A program made the translations under genes and the position numbers. Below are positions 35,523 to 35,646 of a stretch of 45,294 nucleotides of DNA, in pieces (the stretch's first letter is position 1; every line of letters begins with the position of its first letter). The notes below the pieces were generated by a model. The model did not search any database. It was given only the letters and a program-made list of their open reading frames with translations, and was not told where the DNA came from. The stretch lies in sequence record PQ474795.1; one strand, given 5' to 3'. The stretch is from Escherichia phage vB_Eco_AMO_3701M.

Positions 35523-35553
35523 TTGTTTCTCTCCTCTCATTTGGTATGGGCTA

Positions 35554-35582
35554 ACTATAATAGCGAACTATTCACTTGTCAA
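35554..35582 (-). promoter_or_regulatory. sigma70 promoter TTGACA-N17-TATAGT with dyad AATAG-N4-CTATT in spacer
   Basis: Minus strand; -35 at 35577-35582, -10 at 35554-35559. Confidence 0.6.
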
Positions 35583-35597
35583 CGGGCTTTTATAAAA

Positions 35598-35626
35598 TAA
35601 TTAATATGGTACTATTCACATATCAA
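35598..35626. promoter_or_regulatory. degenerate dyad (AATAT-N4-CTATT), candidate operator upstream of the XRE gene
   Basis: TTGATA hexamer on minus strand with poor -10; one mismatch to dyad; next to XRE RBS. Confidence 0.35.
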
Positions 35627-35646
35627 CTGACTAAGGAGTAATTGAC

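Follow-up and report, generated by a model that had tools for sequence, protein, structure and literature searches.

We analysed a 45,294-nucleotide stretch of DNA from Escherichia phage vB_Eco_AMO_3701M (PQ474795.1), hereafter the window, and concentrated on a short interval (35523-35646) that separates a plus-strand gene for a small XRE/Cro-type helix-turn-helix (HTH) protein, called XRE below, from an operon on the minus strand. The interval holds two copies of a dyad, AATAG-N4-CTATT, which recurs throughout the window and of which XRE is the candidate reader. The window is colinear with Escherichia phage M01 (OR061069.1, Guernseyvirinae), with equal length and equal open reading frame (ORF) boundaries, 3,204 substitutions (7%) and no insertions or deletions. 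The phage is a Kagunavirus-like lytic phage of the Guernseyvirinae, and its close relatives are lytic siphoviruses without lysogeny genes, as described in the fBC-Eco01 paper (PMC9825357) among other sources. The locus comprises the following features.

35391-35522, minus strand: first gene of the leftward operon, 43 amino acids, without a family match; ribosome-binding site (RBS) GAGGAG, ATG at 35522
35554-35582, minus strand: P_L, predicted promoter towards the minus-strand operon, TTGACA-17-TATAGT, 11/12 match (promoter scan)
35559-35572: O1, perfect dyad AATAGCGAACTATT in the P_L spacer (motif search; arms invariant in 37 relatives)
35558-35588 and 35602-35632, plus strand: two copies of a 31-nucleotide module made of the dyad and a TCAC-N-TCAAC flank (direct repeat, 77% identity, 44 bp apart)
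35603-35616, plus strand: O2, one-mismatch dyad AATATGGTACTATT over the -10 element of P_xre (motif search, relatives)
35607-35615, plus strand: core of P_xre, predicted extended -10 element TGgTACTAT, without a recognisable -35 element in this genus (sequence)
35633-35638, plus strand: RBS AAGGAG of the XRE gene, 8 nucleotides 5' of the ATG (sequence; kept in 36 of 37 distinct relatives)
35647-35862, plus strand: XRE/Cro-type HTH gene, 71 amino acids, proposed reader of the dyad (HTH_3 domain, 434 Cro match, third-position substitutions)
35851-35880, plus strand: intrinsic terminator for the XRE transcript, whose hairpin spans the stop codon and is followed by a T tract (minus-strand side without T tract)

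The two predicted promoters are arranged back to back. Their -35 regions are separated by about 5 bp, and the predicted starts, near 35547 (minus strand) and 35622 (plus strand), lie about 75 bp from each other. A preliminary description of this DNA had reported a consensus minus-strand promoter with the dyad inside it, and the promoter scan agreed, O1 lying at -25 to -12 of P_L. Just one other intergenic site in the window, at 32377-32405, matches a promoter at 11/12 positions, and the dyad within it has the same offset. The same description had placed the second dyad copy next to the RBS of the XRE gene. The coordinates of that copy were correct, but it overlaps the -10 hexamer TACTAT of P_xre (35610-35615), at -19 to -6, and does not simply stand beside the RBS. 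A one-mismatch copy in a given interval of 124 bp would be expected by chance about 0.003 times. The hexamer and its register are those of other promoters in the window (class B, below), and Jerseyvirus phages have TTGCGT-17-TACTAT at the position of P_xre. From the sequence, the G-to-T "mismatch" of O2 would create the TG of the extended -10 element; we infer that it may compensate for the absent -35 element while weakening the operator. The second copy of the 31-nucleotide module also contains, on the minus strand, a weak promoter-like sequence (TTGATA-18-AATTAT, 35597-35626). For the gene on the left, ATG 35522, which has an RBS, is more plausibly the start than 35540. An Rfam search of 35200-36000 at E values up to 1 found nothing.

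The dyad is not confined to the switch region but is found at the majority of the predicted promoters of the phage. In the window, AATAG-N4-CTATT tops the count of all 5-N(0-8)-5 palindromes, followed by GC-rich terminator hairpins. There are nine exact copies, against about 0.04-0.07 expected, and 13 sites with at most one mismatch, against 1.18 expected, a number that 0 of 100 shuffles reached. All nine exact copies lie at promoter-like sites. When one mismatch is allowed, 11 of the 13 copies fall in predicted intergenic DNA and 12 in promoter-like contexts; the remaining site, at 24635, falls within a tail gene and appears to be a chance match. In 11 of the 12 promoter-context copies, the dyad stands at a fixed offset from the sigma-70 hexamers and, read along transcription, the promoter-associated copies fall in three registers.

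Class A, at 28743, 32382 and 35559 (all minus strand): TTGAC(A/G)-N4-dyad, then -10 element TATAGT; dyad in the spacer, at -25 to -12
Class B, at 4510, 6260 and 16028 (minus strand) and at 39047, 41175 and P_xre 35603 (plus strand): TTGCAC-type -35 element, 17-bp spacer, -10 element TACTAT; dyad over the -10 element, at -19 to -6
Class C, at 6352 and 44378 (plus strand): one-mismatch dyad centred on the -35 element TTGACT

Outside the switch region, the promoter-associated copies are these.

28743-28756, minus strand: class A, in a TTGACG-17-TATAGT spacer, 5' of the helicase block
32382-32395, minus strand: class A, in a TTGACA-17-TATAGT spacer, 5' of the genes for single-stranded-DNA-binding protein and DNA polymerase
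4510-4523, minus strand: class B, TTGCAG-17-TACTAT, overlapping a plus-strand promoter-like site TTGATG-18-TATATT (4499-4528)
6260-6273, minus strand: class B, TTGCGC-17-TACTAT
16028-16041, minus strand: class B, TTGCAC-17-TACTAT, within the divergent region that precedes the tail genes
39047-39060, plus strand: class B, over the -10 element of TTGCAC-17-TACTAT, 5' of small rightward genes
41175-41188, plus strand: class B, TTGCAC-17-TACTAT
6352-6365, plus strand: class C, on the -35 element TTGACT, before the head-gene block; also in Bas70
44378-44391, plus strand: class C, on the -35 element TTGACT of a promoter towards the terminase genes; also in Bas70 and Ent2
40792-40805, plus strand: exact dyad with a TACTAT -10 element, without a -35 element, with GGTGTAACAGG just before it

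An ATG lies 27-37 nucleotides 3' of each class B site. We also considered the dyad as two symmetric, divergent -10 hexamers and rejected this as a general account: one arm is usable (TACTAT) and the other reads CCCTAT or similar, the exception being 4510, which overlaps the plus-strand promoter-like site.

The product of the plus-strand gene had been described as a 71-residue Cro/C1-type HTH protein, and every comparison agreed. Residues 11-65 match Pfam HTH_3 with 48.1 bits against a cut-off of 23 (E 1.2e-12), the protein also matches PHROG repressor families, and its best PDB match by sequence, over the full length, is phage 434 Cro (E 4.9e-7). An AlphaFold2 model (predicted local distance difference test, pLDDT, 79) has five helices (residues 5-17, 21-28, 32-39, 48-57 and 62-66) in a compact fold that superposes on 434 Cro and 434 repressor. 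The top Foldseek matches of this model are 2cro and 1pra (434 Cro and 434 repressor), 434 Cro being the best with a template modelling (TM) score of 0.73/0.79 and about 40% identity; HipB, SinR, the C proteins and P22 c2 rank lower. Since the homologue search returned close Kagunavirus-type sequences alone, the model rests on a shallow alignment of nine sequences. We separately aligned six sequences spanning Kagunavirus, Jerseyvirus, Cornellvirus-type phages and one temperate Klebsiella phage, in which Q21 and Q32, at the starts of helix 2 and of the recognition helix (434 Gln17 and Gln28), are invariant; Q32 aligns with Gln28 of 434 Cro. Among XRE homologues of 77-100% identity, the HTH segment is unchanged. 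Between the window and M01, 11 of 11 substitutions inside the XRE ORF fall at third codon positions, so this is a genuine protein-coding gene. Its domain, fold and key residues make XRE a member of the 434 Cro-like HTH_3 family, and GenBank records already call its gene "repressor" or "Cro".

The XRE gene had also been singled out as a lone plus-strand gene in a minus-strand block, and it is the sole plus-strand coding sequence in 25949-39038 of the M01 annotation, a block of 13.1 kb. Because the hairpin at its end has a T tract on the plus strand only, leftward transcripts probably run antisense through the gene. The helicase-primase gene converges on XRE in Kagunavirus and Jerseyvirus, with stop codons 18 bp apart in the window (35862-35882), whereas in AH01, phiEap-2, Cornellvirus-type phages, TS33, Tsm2 and VLCpiS11a it follows XRE and is read in the same direction. 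These differing orientations imply an inversion in the lineage of Kagunavirus and Jerseyvirus.

We then examined how the switch region varies among Kagunavirus genomes and IMG/VR contigs, which gave 37 distinct sequences. In all 37, the O1 arms are AATAG and CTATT, whereas the central 4 bp occur in six forms, a pattern that reads as the footprint of a dimer recognising the arms. The same set contains a 1-nucleotide indel between the O1 dyad and the -35 element. The O2 arms are likewise invariant (37/37), and the whole O2 copy is kept in 36 of 37 sequences, the exception being one relative with a change at one central base. Among relatives, the first leftward gene differs so much that its coding sequence cannot be aligned, while the regulatory region upstream of it is kept. 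In all, more than 170 Kagunavirus and Jerseyvirus records match the switch region; a search of 5,426 complete E. coli genomes gave no match to it.

A wider comparison covered 11 Guernseyvirinae genomes. Pantoea phage AH01 has the genome layout of the window, and its top AT-rich palindrome is AATAC-N4-GTATT: five copies are exact, and the count rises to 10, against 1.0 expected, when one mismatch is allowed. AATAG-type sites do not exceed the background in AH01, and the same is true of AATAC-type sites in the window. The AH01 sites occupy the corresponding promoters: the copy at 42398, in the spacer of P_L, is perfect, the one at 42463, over the -10 element of P_xre, has one mismatch, and the equivalent of the window's 16028 site reads AATACTATTGTATT. 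Such a change on both arms at many sites would be expected if a trans-acting dimer had altered its specificity, and it points to a dimer encoded by the phage. The arms read ATTAG or AATAC in Cornellvirus-type genomes, and in phiEap-2 position 5 is G in some copies and C in others. Jerseyvirus and Cornellvirus phages both infect Salmonella and differ in their half-sites, which favours a phage-encoded reader over a host factor. When degenerated to AWTAS-N4-STAWT, the dyad is enriched in 10 of the 11 genomes (3-9 matches against 0.3-0.7 expected), and all half-site variants in these ten genomes start with A. A consensus dyad lies 88-111 bp 5' of the XRE start codon in 8 of the 11 genomes. Jerseyvirus Ent2 has a one-mismatch dyad at -97 and a consensus dyad at -42 from XRE. 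O2-like copies 5' of XRE are found at -42 in Jerseyvirus, at -46 in AH01 (one mismatch to AATAC-N4-GTATT) and at -66 in TS33.

The preliminary description had named XRE as the prime candidate for reading the dyad, and the comparison upheld this choice. XRE was detected by tblastn in 11 of 11 genomes and is the only HTH protein found in all of them, which makes it the best candidate. The geometry of the site also fits. The 434 operators are 14-bp dyads (ACAA-N6-TTGT), in which Gln28 contacts the A at position 1. A temperate Klebsiella phage, with a Cro that shares 45% identity with XRE, has a 434-type 14-bp operator, ACAAACAAGTTTGT, between cI and cro, so the 14-bp operator geometry is a trait of the family. 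The M01 annotation lists a "transcriptional regulator" at 14475-14753 (minus strand); this ORF encodes the C-terminal part of a DNA repair exonuclease (phrog_704, E 2.7e-39) whose gene is split by a frameshift, and it was dropped as a regulator candidate.

From the sequence anatomy, site statistics, conservation pattern, fold and gene distribution described above, we infer binding of the dyad by XRE, the sign of the regulation and the order in which the operators fill. A dimer of XRE would bind the 14-bp operator AATAG-N4-CTATT. After infection, host sigma-70 RNA polymerase would fire P_L and P_xre, and accumulating XRE would first occupy the perfect operators, at P_L and at eight further sites in the genome. 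Bound XRE would block the polymerase by steric occlusion of the -10 element or of the spacer. The weaker O2 would be occupied only at a higher XRE concentration, and this late filling would lead to negative autoregulation that holds the XRE level above that needed to turn down the other promoters. A single operator would thus serve in three registers: class A has it within the spacer, class B over the -10 element and class C, with one mismatch, over the -35 element. We hold with moderate confidence that XRE is a Cro-type repressor acting without cI, which occludes sigma-70 polymerase, fills O1 and the other perfect sites first and O2 last, and represses its own gene.

Several observations weigh against this proposal. 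The recognition helices read QGAINQL in Kagunavirus, QSLITHL in Jerseyvirus and QGRVSHI in phiEap-2, all of which go with AATA-type half-sites; a clean co-variation of XRE helix and half-site across genera was therefore rejected, and there is no simple protein-site code. VLCpiS11a has XRE and 0 consensus dyads, and Tsm2 has three, none of them beside XRE. Conservation within each clade is confounded by phylogeny, and more than half of the phage proteins have no known function, so that one of these could be the reader instead. A further point concerns timing. Published RNA sequencing (RNA-seq) of the Kagunavirus phage K1B4 distinguished 4 early, 42 middle and 11 late genes. The XRE orthologue, gene 004 (3386-3601, plus strand, 216 nucleotides, followed by helicase-primase gene 005), belongs to the large "middle" class, and gene 008 (183 nucleotides), the orthologue of a second HTH gene of the window that encodes an HTH_17 protein, is among the four earliest. 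The earlier designation of the left operon as "early" found no support here. Both K1B4 genes are securely mapped, but the classes are coarse and XRE is antisense to a long operon, so this timing is weak evidence either way.

The HTH_17 gene, which encodes the one further HTH protein that could be recognised besides XRE, is the most concrete form of an alternative in which another phage protein reads the dyad, HTH_17 in Kagunavirus and Jerseyvirus and an unrecognised protein elsewhere, while XRE acts locally or on other targets.

38410-38580, minus strand: HTH_17 protein, 56 amino acids, excisionase-like, at the head of the helicase-primase operon (above the Pfam threshold)

The Pfam score and the early peak in K1B4 speak for this protein. 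In addition, its Kagunavirus and Jerseyvirus versions, from the two genera with strict AATAG sites, share 87% identity, a further observation against XRE. Its own predicted promoter (38613-38641, minus strand, TTGATT-17-TATACT) is without the dyad, and the failure of the XRE recognition helices to track the half-sites would also suit another reader. However, among the 11 genomes the HTH_17 gene was found only in Kagunavirus and Jerseyvirus; tblastn did not detect it in AH01, phiEap-2, SP031, St162, VSiA, TS33, VLCpiS11a or Tsm2, and several of these genomes, AH01 and phiEap-2 included, have enriched dyads at the corresponding promoters. HTH_17 lacks a dimerisation segment beyond its winged helix, and the spacers of the class A and class B promoters with a recognisable -35 element are 17 bp, as opposed to the 19-20 bp of MerR-type activators. 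Excisionase-type regulators such as 186 Apl are described as binding direct repeats one helical turn apart and not dyads (PMC7498355). Overall, we consider a phage reader other than XRE unlikely.

XRE could instead bind the dyad as an activator, or as an activator and a repressor, and turn on weak class B promoters including P_xre. Class B promoters match the consensus at 4/6 and 4/6 positions, P_xre has no -35 element, and most K1B4 genes, XRE included, peak in the "middle" class, as such a scheme would have it. But a protein bound at -19 to -6 (class B) or at -25 to -12 (class A) would compete with sigma-70 region 2, and the class A promoters, at 11/12, are already near consensus. Activation by XRE therefore appears improbable to us.

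We give equally little credence to the dyad being a phage-specific promoter consensus for the host or a modified RNA polymerase, without a dedicated DNA-binding protein. A PHIRE analysis of the Kagunavirus fBC-Eco01 found seven tgAATAGTa-ccTATTat-T copies and called them promoters of a phage-encoded RNA polymerase (PMC9825357); this "phage-specific promoter" is the motif that we read as a candidate operator inside sigma-70 promoters. In class B, moreover, one arm of the dyad coincides with the -10 hexamer. Yet an RNA polymerase gene is annotated in 0 of the gene tables of 9 complete relatives, and the motif is symmetric and occurs in three registers and in both orientations relative to the sigma-70 hexamers. 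The class A copies occupy the spacer, a stretch in which sigma-70 has no base-specific requirement, and their arms are nevertheless invariant and their centre free. The joint change of both arms in AH01 also argues against a promoter consensus.

Finally, a host transcription factor or nucleoid protein could bind a dyad that is AT-rich, overlaps promoters and occurs in phages whose hosts are all Enterobacterales, but this is very improbable, given the different half-sites of Jerseyvirus and Cornellvirus within one host genus and the difference at position 5 on both arms between AH01 and Kagunavirus. We know of no E. coli regulator with this dyad as its consensus.

A repressor of the kind that we propose for XRE has several known counterparts. 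XRE and 434 Cro share a length of 71 amino acids, a single HTH_3 domain and a Gln at the start of the recognition helix; the 434 OR operators and the present dyad are both 14 bp long, symmetric, start with A and overlap divergent promoters arranged back to back. The half-site differs, AATAG here and ACAA in 434, and the present phage is strictly lytic, has neither a cI partner nor lysogeny genes, and carries two switch operators instead of three, with ten further sites over its genome. The "classic" switch layout of the preliminary description was accordingly retained in part: two divergent promoters, each under one dyad, do adjoin a Cro-type gene, but the bistable lambdoid switch, with cI, cro and a tripartite OR, is not what we found. 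Only two operators, 44 bp apart, lie between the promoters, and no prophage copies were seen in the 5,426 complete E. coli genomes. The divergent genes, the 43-residue ORF and a phrog_3127 protein, have no HTH or peptidase domain, so that no cI-type repressor is divergent from XRE. No cI is annotated in Bas70, Ent2 or AH01, and there is no integrase in the annotated relatives.

Short operators repeated at many transcription units, which let one protein act on the bulk of a phage's transcription, are known from P1 C1, the phiC31 repressor (conserved inverted repeats) and L5 gp71 ("stoperators"). These are immunity repressors that maintain lysogeny in temperate phages, and the P1 and L5 sites are asymmetric. 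Like those regulons, the present dyad is dispersed over the genome, at twelve promoter-associated sites; unlike them, it belongs to a phage without a lysogeny module or prophage copies and would be read by a protein of Cro size. The C proteins of restriction-modification systems (C.AhdI, C.BclI) are also small XRE-fold dimers, which autoregulate through paired promoter sites and reach TM scores of about 0.7 to the XRE model. Unlike in those systems, no restriction-modification genes stand beside XRE, and both the sequence and the genome-wide distribution of the sites differ.

Some features of the dyad promoters deserve separate mention. The class B cassettes at 4500-4545, 6250-6295 and 16018-16065 are near-identical over about 35 bp (TTGCnC-ACnCCAATAT-AATAGGGTACTATTCA), which suggests duplication or gene conversion of the whole promoter-operator unit. 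The window has two class B units (4510 and 6260) where Bas70 has one. At several dyad promoters (4491, 35534, 39070 and 41198), the predicted transcript opens with a similar leader, (C/A)AAACGAGAG, just 5' of the RBS. This word is not enriched genome-wide (7 matches against 10.4 expected) and so may merely reflect common ancestry of the promoter cassettes. Upstream of the dyad at 40792, GGTGTAACAGG occurs in one or two tandem copies in relatives, and a hairpin, GCTGCTACACAGCAGC, follows the dyad (40770-40840); this site may be a promoter under another form of control, with a binding site upstream of it.

In the Klebsiella-phage lineage of VLCpiS11a (L094, with L073 and L083), which is without the AWTAS-type dyad, a 12-bp perfect palindrome, ATACTATAGTAT, lies over the -10 element of the XRE promoter (about 7937 in VLCpiS11a), together with two further GATAC-N4-GTATC-like sites. 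This may be another specificity variant. For more distant loci (L059, L073 and L080-L086), counts of exact-match dyads gave no clear motif.

Other observations concern the window as a whole. Split genes are common to the window and M01, with DNA polymerase I in six pieces and helicases in several, and the window sequence looks reference-guided or otherwise derived with frameshift errors carried over, rather than an independent assembly. Within the leftward operon, ORFs 35114-35356 and 34866-35087 (minus strand) match consecutive parts of phrog_3127 ("13.88 kDa late protein") and are one gene (34866-35356) split by a frameshift. A GC-rich hairpin, AGGCCCC-N4-GGGGCCT, ends gene blocks in near-identical copies at 4166, 13416, 25926 and 31651; the hairpin, which Bas70, Ent2, SP031 and St162 carry as well, appears to be a terminator cassette common to these phages.

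The proposed circuit is of an ordinary, familiar kind in a setting without earlier study, and it would overturn nothing. Phages of the Guernseyvirinae (Kagunavirus, Jerseyvirus and relatives) are commonly isolated with therapy or food biocontrol in view. In the literature on these phages that we searched, their transcriptional programme is essentially uncharacterised, and we found no experimental characterisation of this circuit. If the proposed role of XRE is right, the control of most predicted promoters of the phage would be explained by one 71-residue protein and one 14-bp site, and the label "phage RNA polymerase promoter", under which the motif was published, would be corrected. Operator or repressor mutants would then offer a simple engineering handle for these phages, and the AATAG and AATAC lineages would allow specificity in the 434 Cro fold to be tested with existing variants. 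More tentatively, and at somewhat less than even odds in our judgement, a single Cro-sized protein in a strictly lytic phage may act on the majority of the sigma-70 promoters by way of one 14-bp operator in three registers, its half-site (AATAG, AATAC, ATTAG) having drifted across the Guernseyvirinae in concert at every site of a genome. The subfamily would then hold a natural series of possibly orthogonal repressor-operator pairs, and the circuit would be the remnant of a lambdoid switch that lacks cI and has been reused as a timer of the lytic cycle.

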